Positions 12,067 to 61,062 of a stretch of DNA of 64,000 nt are shown here, piece by piece (position 1 is the stretch's first letter; every line of letters starts with the position of its first letter). The notes beneath the pieces were generated by a model. It did not search any database. It had not been told where the DNA came from and saw only the letters and a list, made by a program, of their open reading frames with translations. Source of the DNA: an uncultured Eubacteriales bacterium (GTDB lineage Bacteria > Bacillota > Clostridia > TANB77 > UBA1234); the NCBI GenBank assembly GCA_964400015.1, contig CAYNRR010000008.1, forward strand, positions 644 to 64,643, given 5' to 3'. The translations under genes and the position numbers were made by a program.

Positions 12067-12142
12067 CGGGGTGTGGCTCAGTTGGTAGAGTACGTGGTTT
12101 GGGACCATGGGGCCGGAGGTTCGAGTCCTCTCACCCCGACCA
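12067..12142 (+). tRNA. tRNA-Pro (anticodon TGG).
   Basis: Manual cloverleaf: 7-bp acceptor CGGGGTG/CACCCCG, D-arm, anticodon loop TTTGGGA (UGG), T-arm GGTTCGAGTCC, CCA end. Confidence 0.9.
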
Positions 12143-12188: not shown

Positions 12189-12376
12189 TTTAAATCAGCA
12201 TTTTGAAGGTTAATTTGTTTTCAAAAATTCCCTTTCAGTCATTTCATTACTTAAAATTTCCTATTTTTTATTCATTTAACGAATATTTTAAGCATATTTT
12301 ACATATTATAATAAGCAGTAATACGTACTTGATTTTCTCCACAAATTATCGTATAACGATAAAAATAGGTGATAAT

Positions 12377-12765
12377 ATGATATTGACTAATGATATTATA
12401 AAGTTAAATTTACAAGGTTATTCGAATAAAGATACTAAAATATGTAGAGAAGTAAAAAATGAAAATTTAATAAACGGTTTATATGAAACTGATTCAACTA
12501 TAAACGGATATCTTCTAGCAGGAAGTATTTATGGACCGTCTTATTTATCATTTGATTTTGAATTGTCATATTATGGTATAATTCCTGAAAAAGTAACAGC
12601 TTTTACAAATGCTACTTATGATAAAAAGAAGAAAAAAATGTATAAAACCAATTCGGAGTATTTTTATATAGAGATATACCATCAAATGTTTATCCTTTAG
12701 GAATAAACATTATCGAAGAAAATGATGCTAAAGAAGATGTTATTGTTTTTTATAGAAATAACTAA
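12377..12765 (+). pseudogene. AbiEi-like (type IV TA antitoxin N-domain-like) remnant, frameshifted in an A-run and truncated. No AbiEii partner nearby.
   Basis: GPSYLSFDFELSYYGIIPEKVTAF resembles the AbiEi SLESALEYHGLIP motif. The ORF ends at 12700, but the +1 frame continues as ...PSNVYPLGINIIEENDAKEDVIVFYRNN to 12765. The table's 12203 start is an upstream extension. Confidence 0.3.
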
Positions 12766-12896
12766 AAATCTTAATGTAAAATAATATTTCTTTAAATTTT
12801 ATGTAAATCATGTTATAATACTGTTAACAAGTCATTTGTTTTTATCCCTAGGCTAGGCAACAGTGATTTGGCATCATTATATTGGAGGGATTTACT

Positions 12897-13145
12897 ATGT
12901 TCGGTAAGTCGAAAAAGTTCAAGGGTTCTACTAAGATTACGTGTGCTCACGCCCTTGTGGAATCGCTCATCCAGCTCAATCCCACGGTTGCGTTTGAGTA
13001 CGATGATACCTATGATTGGATCAAGGTATCTTGCTCTCCTTCCGACCTCCGGCTTCCGGAACCGTTCTATTACAATGAAAAGAACGGCATCACCAACAAG
13101 CATCAGACTGCTAACGGTATTTATTTTTCCGTGATCGTTATCTGA
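12897..13145 (+). CDS. GC-rich (about 46% GC) small ORF A, 82 aa, unknown function. Compositionally foreign mini-cistron.
   Basis: Extended -10 TGTTATAAT at 12811, GGAGGG SD 7 nt before ATG 12897, terminator right after the stop. GC3-rich codons (ttc, aag, atc, tac) unlike the host. Open in three frames because of the high GC. Confidence 0.45.
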   Translation: MFGKSKKFKGSTKITCAHALVESLIQLNPTVAFEYDDTYDWIKVSCSPSDLRLPEPFYYNEKNGITNKHQTANGIYFSVIVI

Positions 13146-13159
13146 TTCTTGTATTCAAC

Positions 13160-13198
13160 GTGCTATTCGCTTGCGAATGGCACGTTTTCTTGTTTATT
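13160..13198 (+). terminator. Intrinsic terminator after GC-rich ORF A.
   Basis: GTGCTATTCGC/GCGAATGGCAC stem (one G-U pair) then GTTTTCTTGTTTATTT. Confidence 0.6.
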
Positions 13199-13378: not shown

Positions 13379-14426
13379 ATGATAAAACCTAAAAGACTCA
13401 AAGAAGGAGATACTATAGCTCTTGTTAGCTTATCTAGTGGACTAATTGGTGAAAGTGCATTCATCCACAAATATACTTTAGCTCAAAAAAGATTAAAAGA
13501 AATTTTTGGACTTAATTTGATTGCTATGCCAAATTCTCTAAAAGGAATAGAATATCTTTACGATCACCCTGAAAAACGTGCTGAAGATTTTATGAATGCT
13601 TTTAAAGATGAAAATATACAAGGAATTATTTGCGCAATAGGTGGCGAAGATACAATTCGATTACTTCCTTATATCGATTTTGAAGTAATAAAAAATAATC
13701 CTAAAATTTTTTTAGGATATTCGGATACTACAATAAATCATTTTATGATGTATAAAGCCGGCGTCACCTCTTTTTACGGTCCAAACATTATGTGTGATTT
13801 TGCTGAATATGGAAATATGTACGAATATACCGAAAATGCAATAAAAGAATTACTTTTCCTTGCTAATTCTAAGTACGAAATGAAAAAAAGTTCATATTGG
13901 GTTAATGATTTTATAGAATGGGATGCAAAAAATATTGATAAAGTTAAAGAAAGAATTACTGATACAACAGGTTACGAAATCTTACAAGGTAGTGGTAAAA
14001 TAATCCGGAAAATTATTAGGAGGGTGCATTGATGTTTTTCCAATGTTAATTGGTACAAGCATCTGGCCATCTCTTGATGAATGGAAAAATAAAGTTTTAT
14101 TTTTAGAAACAAGTGAAGAAGCTCTCAAACCTCAAATGTTAAAATATTACCTTAGAGGACTGGCTGCCCAAGGTATTTTAAATTCTATAAAAGGAATTAT
14201 TTTTGGAAAACCACAAGGAAATATTTATTATGAGGAATATAAAGCTATAATTAAAGAAGTACTTAAAGAATATAATTTAGAAAATTTACCTGTTATGTAC
14301 AATTTGAATTTTGGTCATAATCTTCCAATACGGAATAATTCCTTACGGAATAGACTGTGAATTAGATTTAGATAACAAAAAATTATACTTTTTAGAAAAT
14401 GTAGTTGAATAACTAAAGTTAGTTTT
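13379..14426 (+). pseudogene. S66 LD-carboxypeptidase (MccF/LdcA-like) with two frameshifts. Paralog of 19161..20168.
   Basis: MIKPKRLKEGDTIALVSL...IFLGYSDTT (catalytic Ser motif). Frame break about 14000-14010 (QGSGKII... versus SGKLLGGCIDVFPMLIGT in the +1 frame). Second break about 14330 inside a TACGGAATA direct duplication (NLPIRNNS versus IIPYGIDCELDLDNKKLYFLENVVE). Confidence 0.75.
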
Positions 14427-14449
14427 GAATTAAAAAAATTTTACAACAA

Positions 14450-14490
14450 AAAGCCATCCCTATAAAATTAGATAGGGATGGCTTTTATTA
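14450..14490. terminator. Bidirectional terminator between the LD-carboxypeptidase pseudogene (+) and the HisRS-like gene (-).
   Basis: AAAGCCATCCCTA...TAGGGATGGCTTT 13-bp stem with T-run. Confidence 0.7.
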
Positions 14491-15732
14491 AAGTATTGCT
14501 AAAACTTTCTTAATTGTCAGTTCATCATCAATTTTATTTGATCGAATATTGATACCTTTTGAATTAAAAAACATGGCTACGCTTTCTTTGTAAAATTCAG
14601 AAGAAAAGAATGCTTTAATATTAAACTTTTTGCACGGCAAAATACAAAATTGATAATCTTCATTTAAAGTCGAAGCATTCAATTTGCACATTAAATTGTT
14701 GATAGTACATAATTTTTCAAAATCGTATACTCCATCAAGAATCAAGTAAACTTTCTTTTTCTTTTGCTTATCTTCCTGCATAAGTTGAGCCATAACTTGA
14801 ACACCTATGCCCATACATACACCGGGTACATTCAAAGAATTATTAAAACAATTGGTAAGAAAATCAATTCTTCCACCGTCAATAAGTAAATATTCACAAC
14901 TATCTTTAGATGCATATATACGATAATTCATACCAGAATAATGATTTGTACCACCAAGATTGCTAAGCGAAAAGCGAATTGGAATGCTGATTTTAAAAAT
15001 ATTTTGTAGTATTTCATACAATTCAATCGACTTTTTAATTTCTTCTACAACTCTGAAATCAGAAATCTTTTTTGAAATTTCCTCAAGTTCATCAAATGAA
15101 ATATTATTTTTCAAGTAAAGTTCTCTTAAAATAAGATAATCACTATGTTTTTCAAGTAATGTTTCTATGACAGTGATATCATTAAATCTAACCTTGCTAG
15201 CAATATCTTCTCCTAAAACATTAAGAAGATTTTGATTTGAAATTTGTAGATATTCATTATCAAAGCATTGAAGTTTTGATAACATTTCAATACATATGGA
15301 TATAAGTTCTGCATCAGCATAAAGTGACGTGGTCCCCCAAATTCCTAATAAAATTTGTTTAAAATTTTTTCTGTATCCTGGCAAATTGGGAATTCTGTCT
15401 CTATATAAATCATCCATTTGAATGAATTTATGTGTTATAGAAGCTGAATTAGGTAAATCTGCTATAAATCTACTCATCGACATCGCAAGATCTGATTTTA
15501 ATAAAAAGATTGATTTTTGTTTAGATCGTACAACTTCAAAAATTTTGCTAAAATGGACTTTTGTTGCTTTAAGATACCTTTCTTTTTCTTCAAAAGGAGC
15601 AGTTTGAAGTTTTAAAAAACCATTAGCATCTGCAATGTTGGAAATAATATCGTATATATATTCAATACATGCGATTTCTTCCCCATAAACATCATACACC
15701 TGTGAAATTTTACTCTCCGAACTCATAAACAC
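14488..15732 (-). CDS. Divergent class II aaRS paralog, HisRS/HisZ-like (414 aa).
   Basis: Motif-2-like LYRDRIPNLPGYRKNFKQILLGIWG (compare FRYERPQKGRYRQF.Q.G). HisRS motif-3-like LIDGGRIDFL (compare GGRYD.L). VCMGIGVQV (compare GFAIGLER). A C-terminal alpha/beta segment. Strongly diverged from a canonical HisS. Confidence 0.55.
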   Translation of the reverse strand: MFMSSESKISQVYDVYGEEIACIEYIYDIISNIADANGFLKLQTAPFEEKERYLKATKVHFSKIFEVVRSKQKSIFLLKSDLAMSMSRFIADLPNSASITHKFIQMDDLYRDRIPNLPGYRKNFKQILLGIWGTTSLYADAELISICIEMLSKLQCFDNEYLQISNQNLLNVLGEDIASKVRFNDITVIETLLEKHSDYLILRELYLKNNISFDELEEISKKISDFRVVEEIKKSIELYEILQNIFKISIPIRFSLSNLGGTNHYSGMNYRIYASKDSCEYLLIDGGRIDFLTNCFNNSLNVPGVCMGIGVQVMAQLMQEDKQKKKKVYLILDGVYDFEKLCTINNLMCKLNASTLNEDYQFCILPCKKFNIKAFFSSEFYKESVAMFFNSKGINIRSNKIDDELTIKKVLAIL

Positions 15733-15760
15733 TCACCGCCTTTTAAGGTAGTATTATGAA

Positions 15761-16639
15761 TTAAACCTTTCCTACAATAAAAATCTGGTTACCTCTTGCT
15801 GCAATATCATCTGCATAAAAAAGTTTTTTCTCAATTTCAAAAACTTTATCAAAAATATCCTTCTTTTCAAGAATATCTTCCAATACCTCAGTAGAACCAT
15901 GAAGTTGAGTTTCAGCATAACCAGGATAAATAACGTTAGGAAAACCAGAAACTCTTTCTACTGTGATTTCAGCTACATCATACATATTACGAATTTTAGT
16001 AGGAGTATACATATGCATAAAAGGCATATTATCAGTGAATTTCGACATTTCATCGTGCATAGCTGTTTCAACATATTTAAAATTGTTTACCGAAATATTG
16101 AAAAATAAATTATGATAAAGATTTGGAACCAGCGAAACAACATAGCCACCAGGCTTAGTTACTCGGGATAACTCATTTAGTGCAACTTGTGGATATTGAA
16201 CAAACCCCAAAACATTGTGAAAATTAAAGCTTACATCAACTATATTAGATGCATATTCCAAATGTTCAATGTTACCTTCAGAAATGCAAAGCCTACTTGA
16301 ATATTCCGGCAATACAAATTTCTTCTTTGCTTCAGCAAGCATATCGACAGATAAATCAACAAGATATCCTCTTGAATTCGGATATTCTTCAAGAATTTTC
16401 TTAGTCCACCGTCCTGTTCCTCCACCTGCATCAAGGAAAACAAAATTAGGTGGAAGTTTATTTAAGACTTCATTCTTAAAAAAGTACCAAAGTAACTTAT
16501 CTGATAAAACCCAGTAAATCTGATTTTCGACATCATCATATGCCGAAGCTTTCTGAGCAAAATAGCTCTGCACACCTGTAATAGTTGTTGCCATGAAATT
16601 TCCTCCTTTATTAAATGGTTGGGAATACTTATAAGCCAT
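15761..16639 (-). CDS. Class I SAM-dependent methyltransferase.
   Basis: Motif I LDAGGGTGRWT, post-I acidic YLVDLS, motif II/III region. The start may be the internal Met (MATTITG...). In an operon with the HisRS-like gene. Confidence 0.7.
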   Translation of the reverse strand: MAYKYSQPFNKGGNFMATTITGVQSYFAQKASAYDDVENQIYWVLSDKLLWYFFKNEVLNKLPPNFVFLDAGGGTGRWTKKILEEYPNSRGYLVDLSVDMLAEAKKKFVLPEYSSRLCISEGNIEHLEYASNIVDVSFNFHNVLGFVQYPQVALNELSRVTKPGGYVVSLVPNLYHNLFFNISVNNFKYVETAMHDEMSKFTDNMPFMHMYTPTKIRNMYDVAEITVERVSGFPNVIYPGYAETQLHGSTEVLEDILEKKDIFDKVFEIEKKLFYADDIAARGNQIFIVGKV

Positions 16640-16675
16640 TCAGACACCAGAATTCTAGCACACATTATTTTTACT

Positions 16676-16718
16676 GTCAACGTTTTTTGTTGACTTATTT
16701 CGAAAATGATGGTAGAAT
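16676..16718 (+). promoter_or_regulatory. SigA-type promoter (TTGACT-17-TAGAAT) for the aaRS-paralog operon. A GTCAAC-N7-GTTGAC palindrome overlaps the -35.
   Basis: TTGACT 16690-16695, TAGAAT 16713-16718, spacing 17. Inverted repeat 16676-16681/16689-16694. AAAGGAGGT SD at 16742. Confidence 0.55.
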
Positions 16719-16757
16719 TCTAACGAAAATTCAAACTATTTAAAGGAGGTTCGTACT

Positions 16758-17792
16758 ATGAAAAACAACCCTAATGTCCCTGATTTTCGCGAATATCCCG
16801 AAAGTTATTATCTCAACATCATATCATCCAAATGGTATATTACCCTCACAAAGTTACACGATGTTATTTCTAGAGCAACAATGGCTTTTTGGTCTAGTAG
16901 AAATGTGAAAACGCTTTACCTTCCTATCACCACTTCATCTATTTCAAGTCCTATGGGATTAGGAAGTGATTCTTCTCCTGTTAGTGTTAATCTCTTCGGT
17001 ATTCAAACATATCTTGCAGATTCTATGCAATTCATGCTTGAATACGGTTGCAGATTTTTAAATGATGGCTGCTATTATATTATGCCTTCATTTCGTGGAG
17101 AAAATGCTGATGAACGCCATTTATGCCAATTTTATCATAGTGAAGCTGAACTTCCTTGTGATTTAAATGGTATCATTTCTGTTGTTGAAGACTATCTGCT
17201 TCATATAACTCATGCGATTTATGTAGAAATGAAAAAAGATCTTGAAGAAATCGTACCGTCTCTATCACACATCGAAGAATTTCTTTCTCAAGGTAAAAAA
17301 ATTTTCAAGCGCATTACTTTTGAAGAAGCAATCGAACTATTAAAGTCTTATCATAAAGACATCGAAAAATATGTGCAATTCAACGAAGGATATCGGGTAA
17401 TCAACTCCGCTGGCGAACTTGAAATTTTAAAGATTCTCGGAGATTTTGTTTGGATTACTAATTATGATATTCTCAGCGTGCCTTTTTATCAAATGACTGA
17501 TCCTTGCGCAACTACTACAACCAAAAATGCTGATCTTCTTTTTGGCATAGGTGAAGTAGTTGGCTCTGGTGAACGTCATGAAACTTCCGATCAGGTAATT
17601 GAAAGTCTTAATAAAAGAAATGTTGATTCTAAACCCTACGAATGGTACATTACTATGAAGAATCAATTTCCTCTTAAGACTTCTGGTTTTGGTATGGGAA
17701 TCGAACGCTATCTTATGTGGCTCTTGCAACATAATGATATTCGTGATATGCAAATTTGTCTACGTTATAATGGTCTCACTATGATTCCATAA
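16758..17792 (+). CDS. Class II aaRS catalytic-core-only protein (AsnRS/AspRS-like, AsnA-type). No anticodon-binding domain.
   Basis: Motif 2 SFRGENADERHLCQFYHSEAE (fRxE..RHl.EF...E). Motif 3 GFGMGIERYLMWLL. 344 aa with no N-terminal OB fold. Only about 100 nt of leader, too short for a T-box. Confidence 0.6.
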   Translation: MKNNPNVPDFREYPESYYLNIISSKWYITLTKLHDVISRATMAFWSSRNVKTLYLPITTSSISSPMGLGSDSSPVSVNLFGIQTYLADSMQFMLEYGCRFLNDGCYYIMPSFRGENADERHLCQFYHSEAELPCDLNGIISVVEDYLLHITHAIYVEMKKDLEEIVPSLSHIEEFLSQGKKIFKRITFEEAIELLKSYHKDIEKYVQFNEGYRVINSAGELEILKILGDFVWITNYDILSVPFYQMTDPCATTTTKNADLLFGIGEVVGSGERHETSDQVIESLNKRNVDSKPYEWYITMKNQFPLKTSGFGMGIERYLMWLLQHNDIRDMQICLRYNGLTMIP

Positions 17793-17812
17793 AAGATAAG
17801 GAGATAAGTATT

Positions 17813-19075
17813 ATGTTAATGTCTAAAAGTGCCTATATTTCTCGAAGAATTGAAAAACTCGACGAAATGTTCCCAGCTCAAGATATTCTTGAGCAAACAG
17901 GGCAAATTGTTAAATTCGAAAGTGGTCTTTGGGGATTCAGTACAATTCCTTCAAAGGTCATGAGAAATGTATCAAATATCATTCGTGAAGAACTTGATTC
18001 TATTGGATGTATTGAAGTTTCTCTACCGATTCTTCAACCGTCTAATATTTGGAAGGCTTCTGGACGCTGGGAAAAATACGTAAAGTCTGATGCGATGTTC
18101 ACTATTTCTAATAAAATCGGTGAATATTGTCTCGCACCTACAGGTGAAGAAGCAATGACTACTTTCATCAATCAATATTCCAAATCTTATCGCACACTTC
18201 CATTCACATATTATCAAATTGGTCAAAAGTATCGTAACGAACTTCGTACTCGTGGCTACATGATTCGTTGTAAAAGTTTTGAAATGATGGACGCATATAC
18301 TTTTGCTAAATCTAACGAGGAAGTTGTTGAAAGTTATAACAAAATTCGTGAAGCTTATTTTCGCATTTTTGCAAGATTAGGATTTGAAGTTATTCCAATT
18401 GCTGCAAACAATGCTGAATTCGGTGGCAAAAAATCTGAAGAATTCATGATTCTTTCAAAATATGGCGATGATAAAATACTGGTTAATCTCGAAAAGAAAA
18501 TTGGTTTTAATACCGAAATTCTCGAACGTGCTGATGCTTCTGAATATCTTTCACAAGAGTTTGGAATTGATGATATCAATTCTTTAAAGCAAGTTCGTGG
18601 TGTTGAAATTGGGCATATTTTTCAACTCGGCACATCGTATTCTAAAAACATGAATATCATGTACACCGATTCTGCCGGTCAAAAACAGCCCTATCATATG
18701 GGATGCTTTGGCATTGGAATTAGCAGAATTGTTGCCATGATTTATGAGATGAACACGCTTGTTTATAATAATAAAACTGTTGGTTTTTCTCTACCGGAAG
18801 AAATCGCTCCTTATAAATACTACATTGTAGCTTTTAATAAAGATTCTGAAAAATTCACACAAGCCTTTAAGTTGTATGAATGTTTGCGTAAAAAAGGCAT
18901 CTCTGCTATTCTAGACGATAGAGATGAACGAATTGGTGTAAAAATGAATGATTGCAAAGCTATGGGAATCCCTAACGCAATCATCATAGGAACAAAAACT
19001 CCTTCAGGGGTTGCTGAACTCGAAAATATTCGAACTGGTGAAAAAAAACTCGTGGCATTTGACGAATTTATTTAA
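17813..19075 (+). CDS. ProRS-like class II aaRS (420 aa, no editing INS domain), probably a paralog.
   Basis: LAPTGEE. Motif 2 YQIGQKYRNELRTRGYMIRCKSFEMMDAYTF. Motif 3 GCFGIGISRIV. C-terminal anticodon-binding domain. 20 nt downstream of the aaRS-core gene with an AAGGAGA SD. Confidence 0.75.
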   Translation: MLMSKSAYISRRIEKLDEMFPAQDILEQTGQIVKFESGLWGFSTIPSKVMRNVSNIIREELDSIGCIEVSLPILQPSNIWKASGRWEKYVKSDAMFTISNKIGEYCLAPTGEEAMTTFINQYSKSYRTLPFTYYQIGQKYRNELRTRGYMIRCKSFEMMDAYTFAKSNEEVVESYNKIREAYFRIFARLGFEVIPIAANNAEFGGKKSEEFMILSKYGDDKILVNLEKKIGFNTEILERADASEYLSQEFGIDDINSLKQVRGVEIGHIFQLGTSYSKNMNIMYTDSAGQKQPYHMGCFGIGISRIVAMIYEMNTLVYNNKTVGFSLPEEIAPYKYYIVAFNKDSEKFTQAFKLYECLRKKGISAILDDRDERIGVKMNDCKAMGIPNAIIIGTKTPSGVAELENIRTGEKKLVAFDEFI

Positions 19076-19093
19076 CAAAATATAATATTTTAT

Positions 19094-19133
19094 GGAGCAA
19101 CTGTCATTATAACAGTTGCTCCTTTTTTATTTT
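19094..19133 (+). terminator. Intrinsic terminator after the ProRS-like gene.
   Basis: GGAGCAACTG...CAGTTGCTCC 10-bp stem then TTTTTTATTTT. Confidence 0.7.
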
Positions 19134-19160
19134 GAAAATTAACTGTAAGGAGATATTTTT

Positions 19161-20168
19161 ATGGTTATTCCACCTAAACTCAAACCTGGGGATGAAATTA
19201 GAATATTAGCTCCAGCTCAAACTCTACGCATTGTAAGTGATTCTGTAATCGAAATTGCAATGAAACGTCTTAACGATCTTGGATTCAAAGTATCTTTTGG
19301 AAATTTTGTTTGGGAAACCGATAATCTTTTGAACAACGCACCTTATACGCATCGGATTAAAGATATTAACGATGCCTTTAATGACCAAAATGTAAAATGT
19401 ATTTTAAGTGCTATAGGTGGATACTCATCTATAGACGTTATAGATGGAATTGACTACTCTGTAATAGAGAAAAATCCAAAAATCTTCTGTGGATTTTCTG
19501 ATATTACAATAATTGAAAATGCCATTACATCTCAAACTGGATTATTAACTTACTATGGACCACATTTTTCAAGTTTCGGTATGCTTGAAGGATTTGAATA
19601 TACAGAGTTAAACTTTATGAAAATGCTTTCTACAACTTCCCTTACTCATAAAATTTATCCTGCACAATATTGGAGTGATGATTCTTGGTTCATCAATCAA
19701 AAAGATAGAAAATATATTGCTAATAAAGGATTTTTTACAATCAATGAGGGAGAAGTTTGTGGCGAAATTATTGGTGGTAACATAACGTCTCTGTGTACAC
19801 TAATGGCAACAAAATATGCACCTGATCTTTCTAACAAAATTCTTTTTATCGAAGATGTATGTGAAGACTCATCTACTTTTTATAGAACATTTGATATGAA
19901 ATTAGAGACCTTACTTTTAAATCCAACATTTATAAAAGTTAAAGGACTAGTAATTGGCAGGCTTCCTGGTATATTACCAGAACCTATAAAAAATATCGTT
20001 AAAATTGTGAAGAATAAGAAAGAACTAAATAATATTCCTGTTTTATATGGGGTTGATTTTGGTCATACGACACCAATACTTACAATCCCGATTGGCGGTT
20101 ACTGCCATATAAAATGTGATAAACAAAATCCTTCAATTGAGATTTCTGAATTTCCGATTTACTTATAA
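19161..20168 (+). CDS. S66 LD-carboxypeptidase (MccF/LdcA-like), intact.
   Basis: IFCGFSDITII (Ser nucleophile motif), ...VDFGHTTPILTIPIGG (His region). 335 aa. Paralogous to the 13379 pseudogene. Confidence 0.8.
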   Translation: MVIPPKLKPGDEIRILAPAQTLRIVSDSVIEIAMKRLNDLGFKVSFGNFVWETDNLLNNAPYTHRIKDINDAFNDQNVKCILSAIGGYSSIDVIDGIDYSVIEKNPKIFCGFSDITIIENAITSQTGLLTYYGPHFSSFGMLEGFEYTELNFMKMLSTTSLTHKIYPAQYWSDDSWFINQKDRKYIANKGFFTINEGEVCGEIIGGNITSLCTLMATKYAPDLSNKILFIEDVCEDSSTFYRTFDMKLETLLLNPTFIKVKGLVIGRLPGILPEPIKNIVKIVKNKKELNNIPVLYGVDFGHTTPILTIPIGGYCHIKCDKQNPSIEISEFPIYL

Positions 20169-20215
20169 CTATATCATTCATATGATTCTCTGTATCCTTC
20201 ATACTTTTCTCACAC

Positions 20216-20244
20216 TTGACATAATTTTAATAAAATGCTACAAT
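20216..20244 (+). promoter_or_regulatory. Consensus SigA promoter TTGACA-17-TACAAT driving GC-rich ORF B.
   Basis: TTGACA 20216-20221, TACAAT 20239-20244. Confidence 0.55.
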
Positions 20245-20287
20245 AATCTTGGCATCAAAATTTATTATGTATGGAGGTACACCAGAG

Positions 20288-20635
20288 ATGTCTTATATTG
20301 ACATAAGTGCAGAAAAGGACGGAGACGCTTACCTGAAAATGCTTGAGGGTGTCGACAACGATACTTTAACTCTTAAAAGTCATTTTCCTGATGTCCAAGC
20401 CGATTCCCACGCATTAGCAGAGCTGACAATCTCTTCTCCCAATGGTTCGCCCATTACGTGTATTGTTTCGAGCAGGGAAAGTTGCATTATATACAATCCC
20501 GGCAAAATGCAAATCAGCACTGCTTCTCCCATTGGCAAGTTTGTTTCCGACAACAGGCACAACCTCAAACCGGGTATGACTTTACCCAACGGCTCTACAA
20601 TTTTGAACGTCGCGTACGTTAATATTGAAGAGTAA
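20288..20635 (+). CDS. GC-rich (about 45% GC) small ORF B, about 115 aa, unknown function. Its own promoter, SD and terminator.
   Basis: GGAGGT SD 9 nt before ATG 20288 (alternative start 20249). Composition is very different from its neighbours. Followed at once by a strong terminator. Confidence 0.45.
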   Translation: MSYIDISAEKDGDAYLKMLEGVDNDTLTLKSHFPDVQADSHALAELTISSPNGSPITCIVSSRESCIIYNPGKMQISTASPIGKFVSDNRHNLKPGMTLPNGSTILNVAYVNIEE

Positions 20636-20642
20636 AACAATT

Positions 20643-20680
20643 AACCCCTGTTTCAACTCGAAACAGGGGTTTCCCTTTTA
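20643..20680. terminator. Bidirectional intrinsic terminator shared by ORF B (+) and the phosphohexomutase gene (-).
   Basis: AACCCCTGTTTC...GAAACAGGGGTT 12-bp stem flanked by T/A runs. Confidence 0.8.
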
Positions 20681-22057
20681 TATATTTAATTTTTCAATTT
20701 CTTCATTTATGTATTTCTTTATTTGTTCAATTATTTCATTGGCTGCTTCTGGTGTTGTTGATTCTGCCTTTATTGTAAGATTTGGTCCAGTATTTGAATA
20801 TCTTACAAGTCCCCATCCGTGACCTACTATGACTCTAGCACCGTCTACACCTATAACTTTATATCCTTCTGAAATATATCTGTTCTTTACATTTTCAACT
20901 ATTTGAGCTTTGGTGTCGTCTGTAACTTTTACGATAATTTCTGGTGTTCCAGCGTATCTTGGCAATCCCTCTGAAAGCTCTGACATTTTTTTGTCTGTAT
21001 TTGATAAGATTCTTAATAATCTTGCTCCTGCATACATTGCATCATCATAACCATAATGCTCATCATTAAAATATATATGACCAGCATATTCTCCTGCAAA
21101 AATTAAATTTTCTTCTCTTATTTTTGCTTTAATTAAAGAACTTCCTACTTTACAAAATTCAGGTATTCCTCCTAATTTTTCAATTTCTTCATACAATGCT
21201 TGTGTACATTTTACATCAAGAATTCCTTTTGAACCTGGATATTTTGGCATCAAGTCTCTCCAAATTAAAGCCATATATTCATCACCAAATAATATTTTTC
21301 CATTTTCATCAAATGCAATTACTCTATCTGCATCTCCGTCAAATCCTAATCCTATATCACATTTATTATCTACAACAAATTTTTCAAAATCTAGCATATT
21401 TTTTTCTTGTGATGGATCTGGATGATGTATTGGAAAATCTCCATCAGATTCGCAACATACTGGTAAAACTTCGCAACCAAGTTTAGTGAAAATTTCTTTT
21501 GCAAATAGTGAACCTACACCATTTCCACAATCAATAGCCACTTTGAGTTTTCTATCGCCTAACTTCACTTTATTTACAATATAATTTATATATTCTTCTC
21601 TAATATCTTTATGTTCAACAGTTCCCTTTATATCAGATTGTGCAAATTCACCTTTTTCAATAAATTTTCTTAAATCTTGAATTGTTTCACCATATATAGT
21701 ATCAGTTCCTAATGCACATATTTTAAATCCATTGTATTCTTTAGGATTATGGCTGGCTGTAATCATTATTGAAGGTTTTATTCCTAGTAATTCTCTCGCA
21801 AAATAAGACATTGGTGTAACACAAAATCCAATATCTACAATGTTCATACCTGTTTCAAGTATTCCTTCTACAAGACCGTCATGTAAATCTTCATAAGATT
21901 TTCTATTGTCATGTCCTACTATTATTTTTGTTTCTCCCTCGTTTTTCATCCAAGTTGCAAATCCTAATCCTATTTTTCTTGCAACTTCTCTATCAATTTC
22001 ACTAGGATATATTCCTCTTATATCGTATCCTCTAAAAATATTCTTTGGTATTTCCAT
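20678..22057 (-). CDS. Phosphomannomutase/phosphoglucomutase (alpha-D-phosphohexomutase family).
   Basis: Active-site ITASHNPKEYNGFK, metal loop GFDGDADR, sugar-binding GEYAGH. Confidence 0.85.
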   Translation of the reverse strand: MEIPKNIFRGYDIRGIYPSEIDREVARKIGLGFATWMKNEGETKIIVGHDNRKSYEDLHDGLVEGILETGMNIVDIGFCVTPMSYFARELLGIKPSIMITASHNPKEYNGFKICALGTDTIYGETIQDLRKFIEKGEFAQSDIKGTVEHKDIREEYINYIVNKVKLGDRKLKVAIDCGNGVGSLFAKEIFTKLGCEVLPVCCESDGDFPIHHPDPSQEKNMLDFEKFVVDNKCDIGLGFDGDADRVIAFDENGKILFGDEYMALIWRDLMPKYPGSKGILDVKCTQALYEEIEKLGGIPEFCKVGSSLIKAKIREENLIFAGEYAGHIYFNDEHYGYDDAMYAGARLLRILSNTDKKMSELSEGLPRYAGTPEIIVKVTDDTKAQIVENVKNRYISEGYKVIGVDGARVIVGHGWGLVRYSNTGPNLTIKAESTTPEAANEIIEQIKKYINEEIEKLNI

Positions 22058-46057: not shown

Positions 46058-49000
46058 ATGAGAAAACAAAAAGGTATTTCTATGGTTTCGTTAGTTATAA
46101 CAATCGTAGTCTTATTCATATTGCTTGGAATAGGTTTTTCGTATTCCAATAATTCAATAAAACAAGCTGGTAGAGGAGTGTTTGTCAGAGAACTTTCACT
46201 TGTTCAACAAGCAGCTAACGAAAAGAAATTAGATAACCAGATTGAAGGTAGTTCAGAAGAAATAAAGTTTAAAGGCTTTTATAAAACGAAAATAAAAAAT
46301 CCTCCTGTAAGTTTTGCGAGCTTTAGTGAAGATGAAATCTATGGATATGTAATAGACCTAGAATACGTTCATACAGAAGATGCAGACAGAGGACATGATT
46401 ACAAACGTTTTGCTAAAGACATAGAAAATAACGTTGTCGAATTCGGAAAAGACGATGTATATGTATGCGATAAAGACGGAAATGTATTTTATGCAAAAGG
46501 TTATCAAACGGATGAAGGAACATACTATTCAAAAAATGAAATAGAAGGACTAGGACCAGAATTCGTATCGATAGATAAAATAATATCATCAGATGCAAAG
46601 AGTGCAATAATAAGAGTCGTAGTAAAGAAAAGCAATAGTGGAGATCTAAGCTTAAAAGTAGACGATGAAGATGCAACAAAAATAGGAACATCAGATGATG
46701 GCACGATGGATACATTTGAAAAAGAAGTGTTTGAAAACAAAACATACAAACTAACAGCAGCAGAAGAAAAAGATGGAACAATAGGAAAAACAACATCATC
46801 AGTAGAAGTAACAGAACTAGACGTAATCACATACGTAATGAAATACGATGCAAACGGTGGAACAGATGCACCAGCATCACACTTGAAAACAGAAAATATA
46901 ATAGCAAGATTATCAACGCAAATTCCAAATAGAGATGGCTACACATTTTTAGGATGGAACGAAAATCCATCAGCAACAATAGCAACATACAAACCAGGTG
47001 GTGAGTATGTATTCGATAGAGACATAACATTCTTCGCAGTATGGAAAGAAGGAAAAGTAAGAACATACAATGTAACATATAATGCAAATGGTGGTACAAA
47101 TGGACCACTATCACAAGAAAACTTAAGTGGAGATTATACAATATCAAACATAACTCCAACTAGAGATGGATATGGCTTCTTAGGTTGGAACGAAGATTCA
47201 AGAGCAACAACAGCCACATACAATCCAGGCGACACAATCACACTTACAAAAAATTTAGCATTATATGCAATATGGGCAAAAGGAACATACACAGTAACAC
47301 TATCAACAAATCCAGAAGGAGCAGGAACAGTAACAGGTAGCACGGCAAAAGTAGATGGAGTTGAAACATACATATCAACAATAGCAAATCCAGGATACAT
47401 ATTTAAAAATTGGACAGTAAAATCAGGAAGCATAAACTTAAAAAATTCAGCATCAACAACAACATCATTCATAATGCCAAAAGAAAATGTAGAAATAGTA
47501 GCAAATTATGAAGTTGGAGATTTAACAGTAAAATACAATGCTAATAAAGGAAAAGGTGCACCATCAGAAGAATCAGCAAAATACGGCGACACAATAATAA
47601 TAAGTCCTAAAATTCCAACAAGGGCAGGATATGACTTCGTAGGTTGGTCATTAAAACAAACAGCAACAGAAGGAACATACTTTGCAGGACAAACATATAC
47701 AGTAAAAGAAAACGTAACATTTTATGCAATATGGAAAGAAAACATTCCAACATACACATTAACATTCAACTTGAATGGTGGATATGGAAACAAAGCAGGA
47801 GAAATAGGAAAATTTGCATCAATAACAAAAGTAAAAGGTGGAAAAATAACAATCCCAGTAGGTGGTGCAGACGAACCATATAGAAAAGATTATGTATTCA
47901 AAGGCTGGGCATTAAATCCAGACTCAAAAGAAGTAGTTTTAAATCCAGGAGACATATATTCAAAAGATGCAGACATAGAAATATATGCAGTATGGAAAGA
48001 TGAAACACCACCAACATTAGTATTAACACCAAAACAAGAAGAAGGTTCAAGCGAAGTAAAAATTATAGCAACAGCACATGACGAAGGAAGCCTTGCTGGA
48101 TATGCTTGGACAAAAACAAACGTAGAACCAACAATATGGGAAACAGAAGAAATAAAAGGAACAGACCTAACAGTAGAAAAAACAATAAAAGAAAAAGGAG
48201 AACACTACTTTTGGGTAAAAGACACAGCAGGAAACGTAGTATCAGAATCAATAAAAGCATACGAAATAAAATATGATGCAAACGGTGGAACAAATGCACC
48301 AGAAACACAATATCAACTAGAAAACGTAGACTTAAGGTTATCAACACAAAAACCAAAATTAGAACAATATACATTCTTAGGATGGTCAACATCAGCAGCA
48401 CCAGGCAATACAGAAAGTGACGTAAACTTTAAAAGTGGAGCAATATTAAATATAAACTCAGACATCACACTAAAAGCAGTATGGGGTGAAGCAGGCTTCA
48501 AGCTAAGCACGAAAAATGTGACAACACAAATAGATGGACCAAGTGTAACAGTAACAGTAACAAAAAGTTCATACACAGGAAACATAACAGTATCAAGTGC
48601 AGACACAGAAAAAGCTACAGCAACAATAAAAGACAACACAATAACAATAACACCAGGAACAAAAATCGGTGATGTAGAAATAACAGTAACAGAAGATGCA
48701 GAAGGAACAACAGAAAAAATACTAGTAATAGTAAATAGAGGAATAAGAAAAATAACATTAGACAAAACAGAAACAGAATTCACATATGGAGACTCAAGTG
48801 AAAAAATAGGATTCACATATAACGGAAAATCAACAACATTATCAACACAAACAAGCAACTCAGAAGTTGCAACAGCAACAGCAACAGACAAAACACTTAC
48901 AATAAAACCAAAAAATACAGGAACAGCAACAATAACATTAGTGTTAGCTCAAGACGATCAATACTTAGAACAAACAGCAAAAGTAGAAGTAACAATAACA

Positions 49001-52000
49001 AAGAGAAAAATAATAGTTACACCAGACGCAAATCAAAACAAAGAATATGACGGAACAGCGTTAACACCAACAATAACATACACATACACAGGCAACAAAG
49101 GAAGCGAAACACCAAAATTCACAGGAGAACTAGCAAGAGAAATAGGAAGTGAAATAGGGGAATATGTAATAACAATAGGAACATTAGCATTAGCAGACAA
49201 CGGAGACTTCAAAGCATCAAACTACACATTAGAACTATCAACAACAAAAATATATTTCACAATAACAGCAAAAAAAATAGCAGTACCATCAGCAATAACA
49301 CCACAAGAATATGATGGAACAACAAAATACGGTGTAGCAGAAGGCGAATACTATATAAGAGGTGGAGAATATCAAAAAATAAATGCAGGCAAATACACAG
49401 CAACAGTAACACTAAAAGACATCAAAAACTATGTATGGGAAGACACAAACACAACAACAGCCAAAAACATAAAATGGGAAATCACCAGATATAATCTATC
49501 AAATGCAGATATTACCGTAGAAACAATACCAAATAAAGAATACACAGGAACTGAAATAACACCAATTCCAGTAGTAAAAAAAGGCGAAACAACATTAGAA
49601 AACGGAAACGATTATACATTAACATACAAAAACAACGTAAATGTAGGAACAGCAACAATAACAATAGAAGGAAAAGGCAACTATGAAGGAACATTAACAA
49701 CAACATTTGAAATAACATCAGCAACAATGCAAGTAGACGCATCAGGATATACAGGAATGTATGACAATGCAAATCACTCAATAAAAGTAACACCAATATG
49801 GCCAACAGCAGGATACACAATATACTACTCAACAATAGAACTAACGCAAGCAAACTACAAAACAGACGGAACAACAACAAATCCAACATACAAAGATGTA
49901 GGAACAACAACAGTGTACTACTACATAGTAGCGTCAAACTTCAAAGACTACACAGGAAACGAAACAATAAAAATAACATCAAAAGATATATCAGGAAACT
50001 TAACAATATCAGGAATCGTAGACAAAACATATACAGGTAGTCAAATAACACAAACAATAACAGTAAAAGATAATGATCAAAATAGAAACCTAGAAGAAGG
50101 AAAAGAATACACAGTAACATATAAAGACAACATAAAAGTAGGAACAGCAACAATAACAATAGAAGGAAAAGGCAACTACGCAGGAACAATAACAAAAACA
50201 TTCAAAATACTAGGAGACACAATCACAATAGCAAAAGACACAGAAGCAGTAGTAGAAAAGCTAGAAATAACAATAACAAGAACACTAACACCAGGAAAAC
50301 TACAATACAAAATAAACAATGGAGAATGGAAAGACTACAGAGGACCATTTGAAATAACAGAAGACTGTACAATTTATGCACGTTCAATAGATGGAGAAAA
50401 CATACTAGGAACAAACGAACTACAAATAACAAACATATGTGAGCACGAATACACAGAAGTAACATGTACAGAAGACTCAGTATGTAAATATTGTGGAAAA
50501 CTAAACAAAGAAAAACTAGGACATGACTTCACATCAAAAACACCAACAGTAGCATATCAATGCACAGCAACAACATGTACAGAAAAAGCAACATACTACT
50601 ACAAATGTACAAGATGTACAGAAAAAGGAACAGAAACATATGAATATGGCGAAGCACTAGGCCATGACTTCACATCAAAAACAGCAACAGCAACATATCT
50701 ATGTACACCAGCAACATGTACAGAAAAAGCGACATACTACTACAAATGTACAAGATGTGCCGCAAAAGGGACAGAAACATACGAATACGGAGAACCAGAC
50801 GGCCACGACTTCACTTCAAAAACACAAACACAAGAATACTGGAAATCAGACGCAACATGTACAGTAGCAACAACATACTACTACAAATGTACAAAATGTG
50901 AAGCAAAAGGAACAGCAACATACACAGTAGGAAGTCCACTAGGACATGACTTCACAGAAAAAATAATAAACGACACATACATCTGCACAACAGCAACATG
51001 TACAAAACCAGCAACATACTATTACAAATGTTCAAGATGTAACGAAAAAAGCACAGAAACATATGAATACGGTGAACCACTAGGACATAGTTATGGAGAA
51101 TATGTAGAAAAACAAGCTGCAACATGTGTAACAGAAGGAATAGAAGAAGCAACATGTATAAGATGTGGAACCACAACAACAAGAACAACAGCAACAAATC
51201 CAGAAAACCACGAAGGCACAATACAAGAAATAGAAATAACAGCCGCAACATGTACAACAACAGGAAGAAAGAAATACGTATGCTCAGCATGTAACGGTAT
51301 AATAAGATACGAAACAATAGCAGCACTAGGCCACGACTGGGATGCAGAAGAGCCACCAAGAGAATGTAGAAGATGTGGCTTAAGAGAAGAATACGTAGCA
51401 CAAGCAATCTACTGCGAATCAGACGGCTCATTAACATTTATAAAGAGTTTAACAGAATACCAAGCAGGCGATACATATGATGGAAAAATAGTAACAGTAG
51501 TGTATAAGGGGTTTGAGACAGAGGAATATTCGAGTGGAACAGCTGTACCTTGGTATGAAAATAGAGAAAAAATCACAAGTGTTAGAGTAACAGATAGTAT
51601 CGAACCAATAAGTACAGCATATTGGTTTAAAAATTTTGAAAATTGTGGATCGTTCGATTTAGGAAAGCTTATTACAGACAATGTAATAGATATGAAATAT
51701 ATGTTTAGTCGAGCAGGATATAATGCAGAAAGAGTAGAAATTGCTGGACCACGTTCATGGGATACATCAAAAGTAACAGATATGAGTTTCATGTTTGAAT
51801 ATACAGCATGTACTTCTGAGATATTTACTCTAGACTATTTAGATAATTTAGATGTTTCTAGTGTAACCAATATGCAAGGTATGTTTAATACTACAGCTAT
51901 TAGCACTACAACATGGAGTATAGGTAACTTAAGTAATTGGAATGTATCGAACGTAATAGATATGTCAAGCATGTTTGCATGTGCAGGATATTATTCTACA

Positions 52001-55000
52001 GTATGGAGCGTTGGTGACTTGAGTGATTGGAACGTATCGAATGTGATAAATATGAGTGGTATGTTTGATTGTGCAGGTTATAATACAAAATTATTTAAGA
52101 TTGGAGACATAGGCAAATGGGATGTGCTAAACGTAACTAATATGTCGAATATGTTTCATTGTGCAGGACATAATGCATCTGAATTATGGAGTATAGGAGA
52201 TTTAAGCAACTGGGATGTATCCAATGTAACTAACATGAAAGAATTGTTTATGGCAGCAGGTTTTCTAGCTACTAATTGGGACATAGGAGATTTAAGCAAC
52301 TGGGACGTATCGAGTGTAACTAATATGGACTCAATGTTTACATACATAGGTGGTAAATCGAGAGATTTAGATATAGGAAAACTAAATAACTGGAATGTTT
52401 CAAATGTAACTAATATGCATGGAATGTTTTGTTATGCTGGTAGTGAAAAAGCCCTTACATTTGATATAGGAAATTTAGATGCCTGGAATGTCTCAAACGT
52501 AACAGATATGAGTTTGATGTTTGCTGGTGCTGGAAACAGTGCACAAAAATGGAATATAGGAGATTTAGGTGCATGGAATACATCGAAGGTTGCAGATATG
52601 CGACAAATGTTCTATGTGTGTAGAAATCTAAAAGAACTAAACTTAAGTGGATGGGATACAAGCAATGTAACAACAATGGAAGAAATGTTCTATGGATGTT
52701 ATAAATTAGAAGAGATTAGCTTAGGCAAAAATTTCAAATTTGTTGGAACAAACGGTTACTTACCAGCCCCAAGTAGCACACACATCACAGGAGCAAACGG
52801 CTTATGGTACAACAAAGCAACAGGAATTGGCTATGCACCGGAAGATATACCAAATAACACAGCAGCAACGTATACAGCATTTCCACCGAAAACAGCACAA
52901 GCAATCTACTGCGAATCAGACGGTTCATTAACATTTATAAAAGATACGCCGTATACGGTTGGTGGAACGTATAATGGAAAAACAATAACAGCAGTGTATA
53001 CAGGATTTGAAACAGAGGAATATTTTACAGATACAGATATACCTTGGTACGAAAACAGAAACAACATTACAAGTGTTGTATTTAAAGATAAAATAACTCC
53101 TCTTAGAACAGCATATTGGTTCTATAAGTTTGAAAATTGTGCAAATTTTGATGTAACTAATTTAGATACTTCTAATGTTAGTTCGATGACTTATATGTTT
53201 GGATTAGCAGGTTTTGAATCAAGTAGTACAACATTTAAAATTATTGGAATGGATAGTTGGAATACAAGTAATGTACAGAGTATGTATAGAATGTTTAGAT
53301 ATGCTGGCACCAAAGCCATAACATTTGATATAGGTGATTTGAGTAACTGGGATACTTCCTTAGTACATGATATGAGCGGTATGTTTTATAGTACAGCAGA
53401 TAGAGCGACAACGTTTGACATTGGTGATATAGGTAAATGGGATGTATCAAATGTATGGGAAATGGACAGTATGTTTAATAATACTGCTGGTGAATGTCAA
53501 ACGTTTAATATAGGCGATTTAAGTAATTGGAATGTATCAAAAGTAACTACTATGTCAAACATGTTTAGTAATATTGGTGGTTTTTATTGTACAACATTTG
53601 ATATTGGTGATATAGGTAAATGGAATGTATCAAGCGTAACAGACATGTCATATATGTTCTATTCTGTTATATGTAATAAAGGTACAACGTTTAATATAGG
53701 CGATTTAAGTAATTGGAATGTGTCAAATGTAACAGATATGTCATATATGTTTGCGGTTTGTGCTAATAATAAAGCATCTAAATTTAATATAGGCGATTTA
53801 AGTAATTGGGATGTATCAAACGTAACTAATATGGCGGGAATGTTTTCTTATTTAGGTGCTAGTGCCACAACGTTGAGTATAGGAGACTTAAGTAATTGGA
53901 AAGTATCAAATGTAACGAATATGCATGGTATGTTTGAATCAGCAGGTCAGAATGCTGCAACATTTAACATTGGTAATATAGGCAAATGGGATGTATCAAA
54001 AGTTACAGATATGTATGGTATGTTTGATTCTACAGCTAATAGTGCCACAACATTTAATATAGGAGACTTAAGTAACTGGAATGTGTCAAACGTGACAGAT
54101 ATGGGAAGGATGTTTACTGCTGTTGCAGAAAATGTGACTGAACTTAATATAGGAGATTTAGGATCTTGGAATACTTCAAAAGTAACCAATATGTCAGAGA
54201 TGTTCAGAGGATGTACTAAATTAAAAACACTAAACCTAAGTGGATGGGACACAAGCAATGTAACCAAAATGTCAAATATGTTCTATCATTGTTATAACTT
54301 ACAAGAAGTTACACTAGGTAAAAAATTCAGCTTTGTAGGAACAGATGGCTACTTACCAGTACCAAGTGGTACATATATTACAGATGCAACTGGTCTATGG
54401 TACAACAAGGCAACGAAAGTTGGTTATGCACCAGAAGATATACCAAATAAGACAGCAGCAACATACGTAGCATATCCTGTAAAAACAGCGCAAGCAATCT
54501 ACTGTTCATCAGATAATTCATTAACATTTGTAAATAGTACAACACTATATTCAGTAGGTGGTAAATATAGCAATAAAACAATAACAGCAGTATACACAGG
54601 GTTTGAAGATGAAGAATATTCATGGAACAATAATGTACCTTGGTATAACTACAGAGAAAGTATAAAGAGTGTTACAGTAAAAGATACAATAACACCAAAA
54701 AGTACAGCATACTGGTTTGAAGAATTCAAAAACTGTAGTACGTTTACTGTAACAAATTTAGACGTATCCAAAGTAAAAAATATGACAAGCATGTTCAGTA
54801 ATGCAGGTTTAAAATCTACATCATACAAAATAACTGGAATGAATAACTGGGACGTATCAAATGTAACAGATATGAGTTATATGTTTGCATATTCACAATC
54901 TTGGTCAGCTGATGGAGGTCCACAATGGACATCATTTAATATAGGTGACTTAAGTAAATGGAATACAAGCAAAGTTACAGATATGTCAAATATGTTTACA

Positions 55001-59629: not shown

Positions 59630-60147
59630 AGGGACGTCCGTTAAATGTGTCACCAATCTTTTAAATGCTTGCAGTGAAAGAAAAAGGCGAAAAATAAATA
59701 GCAAAAAAGTGAGACACTTTAGCAGTGAGAAAAAGTTATTTGTAACGAGAAAAATTATTTTAATTGACAAGTATCAAAAAACAATTTAATATAAAGTCGG
59801 TTGAAGAAAATGTACTGAATAAAAAATGGACAGTATAAAAACTTTAGCCGACTTTATTTTTATACGAAAATTGCATAATAAAGTTTCAACCACAAAACGC
59901 AATAAACTAATTTTCGTATAAAACCAATTCTAATTCGCAAAATTCTTTGCGAAAATTTCCAAATTTTAAAATTCAAATATAAAAAGGACTGATGCCTATG
60001 CACACGTAAGGCTTTTTGCGTATAATTCAATATTAGAACGTAGTATAAATGGTGGCAAAATTAAATTATTTCACTATTATACTGCTTTATTTTCATACTC
60101 AAAATTTGCAAAATCCCCCACAAAAACCATTTAAGAAAGGAACACAC

Positions 60148-61062
60148 ATGATACTAAAAGAAGAAATATTAAGCAAGATCACGCCTAAAAATGACGTTAT
60201 CTTTAAAAAGATTTTCGGAGCGAGAGGAAACGAAGGAATCTTAAAAAGCTTCCTTGAAAGCATATTAGACATAGAAATTGAATCACTAGTAGTAGACTTA
60301 GGGACCGAACTATTGCCAGACTTCTACGACGGCAAACTCTCAAGACTAGATGTAAGAGCAACTTTAAATGACGGCACAATTGTAAACATTGAAGTGCAAA
60401 CAAATATGCATGACTACACTGATAAAAGAAGTCTAGCATATTGGAGCAAAGTTTATTTGGAACAATTCAAGCAAGGACAAAACTATAAGAATGCCAATAA
60501 AACAATTTGCATATGGATACTAGACGGGCAAGTATACGACTTTCCGGAATACCATTCAAAATGGAAAGTTGCTGAAGTAACAAACGGCCAAACAAAATAC
60601 TTTGATGACTTTGAAATACACGTAATAGAGTTGCAAAAATTCAGGAAACTAGATATAATTGAACCGAAGAAAAAAGAATTTTGGCTATGGTTCATCGACC
60701 ATACCAAAAAGGAGATGGTCGAGATGTCAAGTTATACACTAGAAGAAATAAAGAAAGCCAAAGCAGAATACGAAAAAATGATAGCCGAAGAACCAGAACT
60801 ACAACATTTCCTAATGCGTGAAGAATTCGCAGCAATGGATAGAGCACAAGAACTAAGCGATGCAAGAGAGAAAGGTATAAAAGAAGGCAAAGAGGAAGGT
60901 TTAAAAGAAGGACTAGAAGCTGGCAAAAAAGAAGGCTTGCAAGTTGGCAAAAAAGAAGAAAAACTAGAAACAGCTAAGAAAATGCTGGAAAAAGGTATTG
61001 ACATAAAAACAATCGCAGAGATAACAGGCCTTACCGAAGAAGAGATTAGGGACGTCCGTTAA
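60148..61062 (+). CDS. Rpn-family recombination-promoting nuclease/putative transposase (PDDEXK_7, YhgA-like), copy 1.
   Basis: NDVIFKKIFG, RLDVRA...VNIEVQ (PD-(D/E)xK core), C-terminal EKG/KEG low-complexity region. Start aligned to copy 2 (GAAAGGAACACAC ATG); the table's 60049 start is an extension. Confidence 0.75.
   Translation: MILKEEILSKITPKNDVIFKKIFGARGNEGILKSFLESILDIEIESLVVDLGTELLPDFYDGKLSRLDVRATLNDGTIVNIEVQTNMHDYTDKRSLAYWSKVYLEQFKQGQNYKNANKTICIWILDGQVYDFPEYHSKWKVAEVTNGQTKYFDDFEIHVIELQKFRKLDIIEPKKKEFWLWFIDHTKKEMVEMSSYTLEEIKKAKAEYEKMIAEEPELQHFLMREEFAAMDRAQELSDAREKGIKEGKEEGLKEGLEAGKKEGLQVGKKEEKLETAKKMLEKGIDIKTIAEITGLTEEEIRDVR

Follow-up and report, generated by a model that had tools for sequence, protein, structure and literature searches.

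Two GC-rich mini-genes bordering a variable region of an AT-rich Clostridia chromosome are probably unrelated small-protein genes on moron-like cassettes

The window analyzed here, a stretch of 64,000 nucleotides from an uncultured, AT-rich member of the Clostridia, holds two short GC-rich open reading frames, ORF1 and ORF2, and raises the question of what these mini-genes encode, whether they serve the genes beside them, and how their composition arose. An earlier note made from the sequence alone had described two GC-rich short ORFs in an AT-rich background, each with its own promoter, GGAGG ribosome binding site (RBS), and terminator, and with codon usage unlike that of the host, and measurement bears this description out. 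ORF1 is 45.4% GC and ORF2 is 43.4% GC against a window mean of 31.2% and local flanks of 21-29%; scanned in 200-nt steps of sequence, the segments reach maxima of 0.485 and 0.48, respectively, about 3.7 SD over the mean, and are exceeded only by a tRNA-Ser pair at 39.3 kb. The excess sits in third codon positions, with GC3 values of 0.58 for ORF1 and 0.47 for ORF2 compared to 0.20 +/- 0.07 for 36 window ORFs, placing the two genes 5.4 and 3.8 SD above host genes. A consensus scan found matches to the described signals at both ORFs (Table 1), including a near-consensus sigma-A promoter in each case, the promoters and terminators being predictions by consensus matching. It is probable, in our judgment, that ORF1 and ORF2 are unrelated, genuine small-protein genes on autonomous moron-like cassettes that border a variable region, and that their GC-richness is a codon-level property.

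Table 1. Predicted features of the ORF1 and ORF2 units and the left border of the variable region (window coordinates)
Feature	Position	Strand	Basis or detail
tRNA-Pro(UGG), left border of the variable region	12067-12142	+	same tRNA upstream of ORF1-type cassette in L015 and L069
ORF1 promoter, TTTAAA-17-TATAAT, TG-extended -10	12791-12819	+	consensus scan; conserved in L004-L006
ORF1 5' leader	12820-12896	+	TTGGCATCA at 12868-12876; GGAGGG RBS at 12884-12889
ORF1 CDS, 82 aa, predicted stand-alone copy of the LNP…FYYNEKNGITNKH domain	12897-13145	+	homology; codon-position pattern
Hairpin inside ORF1 CDS, CCGTTCT(N12)AGAACGG, over PFYY..KNG	13062-13087	+	7-gene codon alignment
ORF1 intrinsic terminator	13157-13196	+	scan hit at 13157-13186; 13-bp stem followed by T run; conserved in L004-L006
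ORF2 promoter, TTGACA-17-TACAAT, TG-extended	20216-20244	+	consensus scan; identical promoter in L001 and L070
ORF2 leader	20245-20287	+	TTGGCATCA at 20249-20257; GGAGG at 20273-20277
ORF2 CDS, 115 aa, apparent lineage-restricted orphan protein	20288-20635	+	dN/dS; alleles
Bidirectional terminator, ORF2 (+) / PGM (-)	20643-20680	both	scored on each strand

The patterns of substitution indicate that both ORFs encode genuine proteins and not structured RNAs. Strain-level loci (L004-L006) span both ORFs at about 92% DNA identity, and the 12 differences between ORF1 and its counterpart in L004 are distributed 2/0/10 by codon position (p = 5e-4) with no indels; the ORF1 start codon is GTG in L006. 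At the within-species level, dN/dS comes to 0.05 for ORF1 and, measured against L004, to 0.024 for ORF2, and the ORF2 homolog P0009, at 68% identity, gives a dN/dS of 0.13 with differences distributed 28/18/54 by codon position, such that all ORF1 and ORF2 comparisons fall at 0.02-0.13. The suggestion that these segments are structured RNAs masquerading as ORFs, for which an Rfam scan had been proposed as a check, is thus at odds with a clear coding signature, and Rfam searches of the window and four homologous loci, conducted at the gathering threshold and at E <= 10, returned tRNAs only, with no match to the ORF1 or ORF2 segments on the relevant strand even at the looser cutoff. ORF1 is missing from the protein collection and is uncalled on every Logan contig, evidently because of its codon usage, and a word-index protein search with ORF1 was empty because the gene is uncalled everywhere.

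Searches at the protein level place ORF1 in a large family. An exhaustive HMMER search yielded 142 cluster representatives at E <= 1e-3 and a profile search yielded 156 clusters, every one of them unnamed or annotated as "hypothetical". ORF1 therefore appears, from these alignments, to be a stand-alone copy of a widespread and undescribed domain of approximately 65 aa that carries the motif LNPxV…LxLPxGFYYNEKNGITNKHNTxxGxY. Stand-alone members match ORF1 at E values of 1e-17 to 1e-10 and 45-55% identity, LNP and KNGITNKH motifs included, and the conserved residues of the family are N28, P54, N67, K68, G74, and Y76. The domain occurs singly in proteins of 70-140 aa and is also repeated, with two to three copies in those read, in proteins of 375 to >1,300 aa, most of which carry a membrane segment at the C terminus and lack a signal peptide. 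Three of these tail-anchored proteins (L019, L024, and L034) share the LNP…KNGITNKH domain of about 65 aa with ORF1 but contain at least two repeats in the same size range, a C-terminal membrane segment, and ordinary host codons with a GC3 of about 0.11, where ORF1 has a single domain and GC-rich third positions. Matches to CBM_14, SprB, and Lysis_col in the large homologs are likely spurious low-complexity hits, leaving no informative Pfam domain, and a Desulfobacteraceae MmgE/PrpD-like ORF recovered in a scan of genome contigs was set aside as a lone chance match.

The earlier note had allowed that homologs might reveal a conserved small protein unrelated to the adjoining genes, and this is essentially what the protein searches found for ORF1. 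The weak shared motifs that had hinted at kinship between ORF1 and ORF2, on the other hand, do not survive comparison, with a BLASTP E value of 0.07 over 18 residues and an hhalign probability of 0.2%. HMMs from Pfam, NCBIfam, PHROG, and PADLOC did not match ORF1, ORF2, or their homologs. An AlphaFold model of ORF1 built on a 32-sequence alignment (pLDDT 87) consists of one helix followed by five short strands; this model has no match among PDB and BFVD folds, and a sequence search of the PDB was likewise without a hit. A literature search found the ORF1 domain motif absent from papers, and no relatives were found in viral contigs (IMG/VR), 50,697 phage records, plasmid records, or BFVD. Thus, a gene missed by every caller proves real. 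Its family comprises more than 150 clusters, and large membrane-anchored proteins from Firmicutes and Mollicutes of the gut and rumen contain the domain in repeated form. In eight homologs from rumen metagenomes (L016-L018, L021, L022, L027, L033, and L038), in-frame TGA codons occur at conserved Trp-like positions, suggesting hosts that use genetic code 4 and pointing to Mollicutes.

ORF2, by comparison of its alleles, appears to be a narrow, lineage-restricted orphan. Three alleles are known, those of the window, P0009, and a gene in L070 that is 46% identical, and they share the conserved blocks ALAExTISS, ITCxVS, and MQISxxSPxGxF. The structure model of ORF2 is weak (pLDDT 61), and neither the model nor the sequence had a structural match, the PDB sequence search again being empty. 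Divergence of the ORF2 alleles is out of step with that of their hosts: identity is only 46% in L070, where the phosphoglucomutase (PGM) falls in the same 90%-identity cluster as that of the window and DNA identity to the window across the PGM-to-dnaA block is 88%, while it reaches 68% in L001, where PGM identity is 88% for the protein and 84% for the DNA. Vertical inheritance can therefore not be assumed; the comparison of L070 and L001 indicates that allele replacement by transfer happens and makes repeated import a serious rival in explaining the composition of these genes, as considered below. A single hairpin at 20643-20671 scores as a terminator both ways and appears to be shared by ORF2 and the convergent PGM gene.

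The arrangement of the two mini-genes around the MccF-like (S66 family LD-carboxypeptidase) genes is as had been reported, with ORF1 immediately upstream of a split MccF gene (13379-14032 and 14043-14360) and ORF2 immediately downstream of an intact one (19161-20168). This adjacency is what recommends the proposal that ORF1 and ORF2 are immunity or accessory proteins of MccF or of the tRNA-synthetase-like island between them, a proposal that we now regard as very improbable. Two loci, L006 and L007, lack the sequence corresponding to 14438-20198, and with it the island core and the intact MccF, yet retain ORF1, the split MccF, and ORF2, followed by PGM, with both mini-genes kept under purifying selection; only two remnants of the island persist, matching 14557-14616 and 15738-15778. 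Elsewhere, the ORF2 homolog in L001 adjoins a SHOCT-domain gene and the ORF2 allele in L070 is followed by an integrase, a reverse transcriptase (RT), and an MmeI-type enzyme, with neither an MccF nor a tRNA-synthetase-like neighbor in either case, and all ORF1-family loci outside this lineage are also without such neighbors. Clustering of neighbor families across about 60 ORF1-family loci gave no recurrent partner, and conserved co-occurrence with S66/MccF genes was not found at loci of either family. The pairing with LD-carboxypeptidase genes is thus positional only, and an immunity or accessory role for the neighboring genes is contradicted by the losses in L006 and L007 and by the MccF-free loci. 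Microcin C-type clusters with MccF self-immunity resemble this locus in that S66/MccF genes are adjacent, but MccA-E are unlike ORF1 or ORF2, and the MccF co-occurrence tested here was not found. A tempting but mistaken connection of the small genes to the MccF/tRNA-synthetase-like island is thereby set aside.

The island itself, at 14488-20168, contains three class-II aminoacyl-tRNA-synthetase paralogs (HisRS-, Asp/AsnRS-, and ProRS-like), a SAM methyltransferase, and the intact MccF, and it might provide for an aminoacyl-nucleotide antibiotic together with immunity to it. L004, L005, and L006 have the MccF-like gene upstream in an identically split form, and the measured N-terminal part has a dN/dS of about 0.12-0.18; it may still function as a two-part or recoded gene and not be a dead pseudogene.

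Comparison of these loci places ORF1 and ORF2 at the edges of an integration hot spot, a variable slot lying between tRNA-Pro and a PGM-gyrB-dnaA block. Its cargo varies, being the tRNA-synthetase-like/MccF island in the window and an integrase/RT/MmeI island in L070. In L015 and L069, from a relative with a core gene at 77% DNA identity, tRNA-Pro likewise precedes an ORF1-type cassette (49% amino-acid identity). The adjacent tRNA is an ordinary tRNA-Pro(UGG), which disposes of the idea of a rare-codon tRNA. Between it and the ORF1 cassette, the segment 12143-12788 holds an ORF (12203-12700) encoding an AbiEi antitoxin-like fragment (PADLOC E = 9e-24) that is present in the window strain only, with other DNA at this position in L004 and L006. 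In L070, a close relative, the corresponding slot beside the ORF2 allele (14039-21380) looks like a defense island: besides an integrase and an HTH gene it contains genes of the SLFN/AlbA type, a reverse transcriptase, and a restriction-modification enzyme of the MmeI type.

Each mini-gene unit measures about 400-460 bp and consists of a predicted promoter, a short leader with GGAGG, the ORF, and an intrinsic terminator, and all stand-alone ORF1 relatives examined are monocistronic with an anatomy like that of ORF1. The boundaries of homology coincide with those of the unit. L014 and L015 share 398 bp only, at 87% identity and in unrelated flanks, and the shared unit begins 2 bases ahead of the -35 box and stops where the terminator does; similarly, homology to the strain loci starts at 12789, just upstream of the ORF1 -35 box, and homology of ORF2 to L001 starts at 20214, at the -35 box. 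No terminal repeats or target duplications were seen at the cassette ends. Neighbors of ORF1-family members are often tRNA-Pro, tRNA-Gly, tmRNA, integrase, resolvase, TnpV, or KilA-N genes. One member directly follows a tmRNA gene (L073, 4508-5426), and in L046 (36-1409) a tRNA-Gly gene precedes the family member by about 1 kb; tmRNA and tRNA-Gly genes are classic integration sites. The description of these genes as acquired cargo, which the earlier note had offered as one possibility, is a fair account of how such cassettes spread.

In these respects ORF1 and ORF2 behave like moron-type autonomous cassettes with their own predicted promoter and terminator, although for the window's own two genes the part that varies is the flanking cargo only. 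Morons are defined by their own promoter and terminator and by a deviant GC content (PMC3594210). As in the phage morons of the Juhala/Hendrix concept (PMC3594210), a single gene with its own promoter and terminator and a composition unlike that of its neighbors is found inserted between unrelated genes in varied contexts. Unlike phage morons, ORF1 and ORF2 lie outside a prophage with no phage genes adjacent, and they are GC-richer than their host, with a composition that appears to persist and not to fade.

This composition may be maintained or may be a residue of import. When 12 GC-rich mini-genes were pooled and compared to 17 host genes, A in third positions fell from 0.48 in the host genes to 0.15 in the mini-genes while T changed little (0.37 to 0.33), with rises in C (0.07 to 0.31) and G (0.08 to 0.21). 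The drop in A with T nearly unchanged indicates avoidance of A-ending codons and not a uniform shift toward GC. The same GC-richness is seen in at least 10 distinct stand-alone relatives, which are 41-49% GC inside flanks of 25-33% GC. Other members have near-host or intermediate GC, namely L063, L073, L055-61, and the L070 ORF2 allele, a pattern that could equally reflect amelioration after import; the code-4 copies and all large repeat proteins are near host composition as well.

A fading scar of recent and repeated acquisition from donors of 45-50% GC, with nothing maintaining the composition, is accordingly a reading we take seriously while leaning against it. It would account for the single cassette in unrelated flanks, the frequency of family members next to tRNA, tmRNA, and integrase genes, the continuous range of GC3 (0.68 to 0.13), and the incongruence of allele and host divergence, and the codons AAG, CAG, CTC/CTG, CCG/CCC, and ATC resemble the usage of mid-GC Firmicutes. 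It fits less well with the distribution of about 25 distinct stand-alone loci: every GC-rich copy found has flanks of <=33% GC, and L040, the only stand-alone copy with mid-GC flanks (41%), has a higher AT content than the DNA around it. Nor does it predict that T-ending codons be kept while A-ending codons are purged, which is no simple GC shift. Polarized synonymous changes among three strains show a net excess of GC->AT over AT->GC (26 vs 15), as a fading scar would, but this ratio is indistinguishable from 1:1 and far from the neutral expectation of about 5:1 (p = 0.002), the latter being a rough calculation from host GC3. Over longer times, ORF2 GC3 stays at 0.45-0.48 across lineages at dS of 0.6-1.6, compared to 0.09-0.14 for the neighboring PGM. 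From these observations we infer that the GC-rich composition is held near steady state.

The codon pattern might instead reflect very high expression, with translational selection for C-ending codons in two-fold boxes and T-ending codons in four-fold boxes; the pattern would then go together with the consensus promoter, perfect RBS, and strong terminator. CGT, GGT, ACT, TCT, GTT, ATC, TAC, AAC, CAC, and TTC are indeed raised relative to host genes, those of the window being outside the ribosomal and other highly expressed classes, and the quality of the promoter and RBS is high. However, AAG (73%), CAG (83%), CTC, CCC, CCG, and CGG are raised as well, none of which is known to be an optimal codon in low-GC Firmicutes, and the multi-repeat paralogs use ordinary host codons. 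We therefore consider translational selection unlikely as the explanation. Returning to the reading that we prefer, each cassette would produce a small cytoplasmic protein independently of the adjoining genes, and GC-richness would be a codon-level trait in which codons ending in A become scarce and those ending in C or G more frequent while T-ending codons hold their share, common to stand-alone relatives in other AT-rich hosts and accompanied by mRNA folding above that of synonymous shuffles. The repeated association of this family with A-avoiding codons, in hosts that are themselves 25-33% GC, is unusual and makes it a clean test case for the question of whether selection acting on the mRNA, through its stability, its folding, or its avoidance of nucleases, can keep composition from yielding to strong AT mutation pressure.

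The folding of these mRNAs was compared to that of synonymous codon shuffles within each CDS. MFE z-scores were -2.6 for ORF1, -1.2 for ORF2, and -2.3, -3.6, -5.4, and -7.9 for relatives, and the mean over 11 lineages was -2.0 compared to -0.5 (minimum -1.8) for 20 host segments (Mann-Whitney p = 0.005), with the reservation that GC-rich codons clustering locally could inflate such scores. The sole element conserved when seven ORF1-type genes are aligned by codon is the hairpin listed in Table 1, which lies under the most conserved peptide motif of the family. Its third-position pairs are complementary in 13/13 and 11/13 copies, including AT-rich paralogs (CCATTTT/AAAATGG) and the mixed-pair L063. 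These observations are suggestive, though they were made post hoc.

The leaders also show a common element. The 9-mer TTGGCATCA is present in three copies in the window where 0.81 are expected, and two of the three sit 20-30 nt upstream of the ORF1 and ORF2 RBSs. In a different assembly, an ORF1-family gene (L009, 5967-5992) has a leader reading TTGGCATCAAA…GGAGGTACACC, which is almost the leader of ORF2. Occurrence of this element before ORF1, ORF2, and the L009 gene suggests that unrelated ORFs share an expression module. Inspection of the TTGGCATCA region by eye for an alternative sigma factor or sigma-54 gave no convincing match.

Folding beyond synonymous shuffles in ORF1 and most strongly in two of its relatives, a hairpin with complementary third positions, a leader 9-mer common to two unrelated ORFs, and a gene left uncalled by the callers of every source are all features that could be expected of a structured or dual-function RNA, acting beside or instead of the protein. 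We consider such a role improbable, since the coding signature is strong and the protein family deep, Rfam provides no match, the conserved structure across the ORF1 family amounts to one hairpin, and the z-score of ORF2 lies inside the control range.

Taking these genes as protein-coding cassettes, our best guess as to their nature is that they encode abundant, constitutively produced cytoplasmic proteins on mobile accessory cassettes whose composition is held in part by selection on the mRNA. That expression is high and constitutive and that the composition is actively maintained are inferences, as would be any biochemical role. A bolder reading, and one we offer as a long shot, is that AT-rich Clostridia carry a class of self-expressing chromosomal cassettes of about 400 bp in fixed slots, with a shared TTGGCATCA…GGAGG leader and mRNAs that are actively kept A3-depleted, GC-rich, and highly folded. 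Such cassettes would occupy slots beside tRNA and tmRNA genes at the borders of integration hot spots, where divergent alleles would be swapped, and the ORF1 domain would be a new small-protein fold with a role related to conflict or mobile elements. If true, the shared leader module would imply common post-transcriptional control or a reusable expression scaffold.

Surveys of GC-rich intergenic regions (GC-IGRs) have encountered unannotated ORFs in GC-rich "intergenic" regions of AT-rich genomes (PMC6429828). As with ORF1, a GC-rich segment that looks like an ncRNA proves in those cases to be an uncalled coding region; the surveys treat such cases as annotation noise (PMC6429828), whereas in the ORF1 family GC-richness recurs across many hosts. 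The practical warning is that a GC-rich peak in the "intergenic" DNA of an AT-rich genome can turn out to be an overlooked protein and not an ncRNA. Elsewhere in the window, an ORF of 4,523 aa occupies 46058-59629, and two PD-(D/E)XK-family transposase genes at 60049-62348 have GC3 raised to 0.33-0.35.
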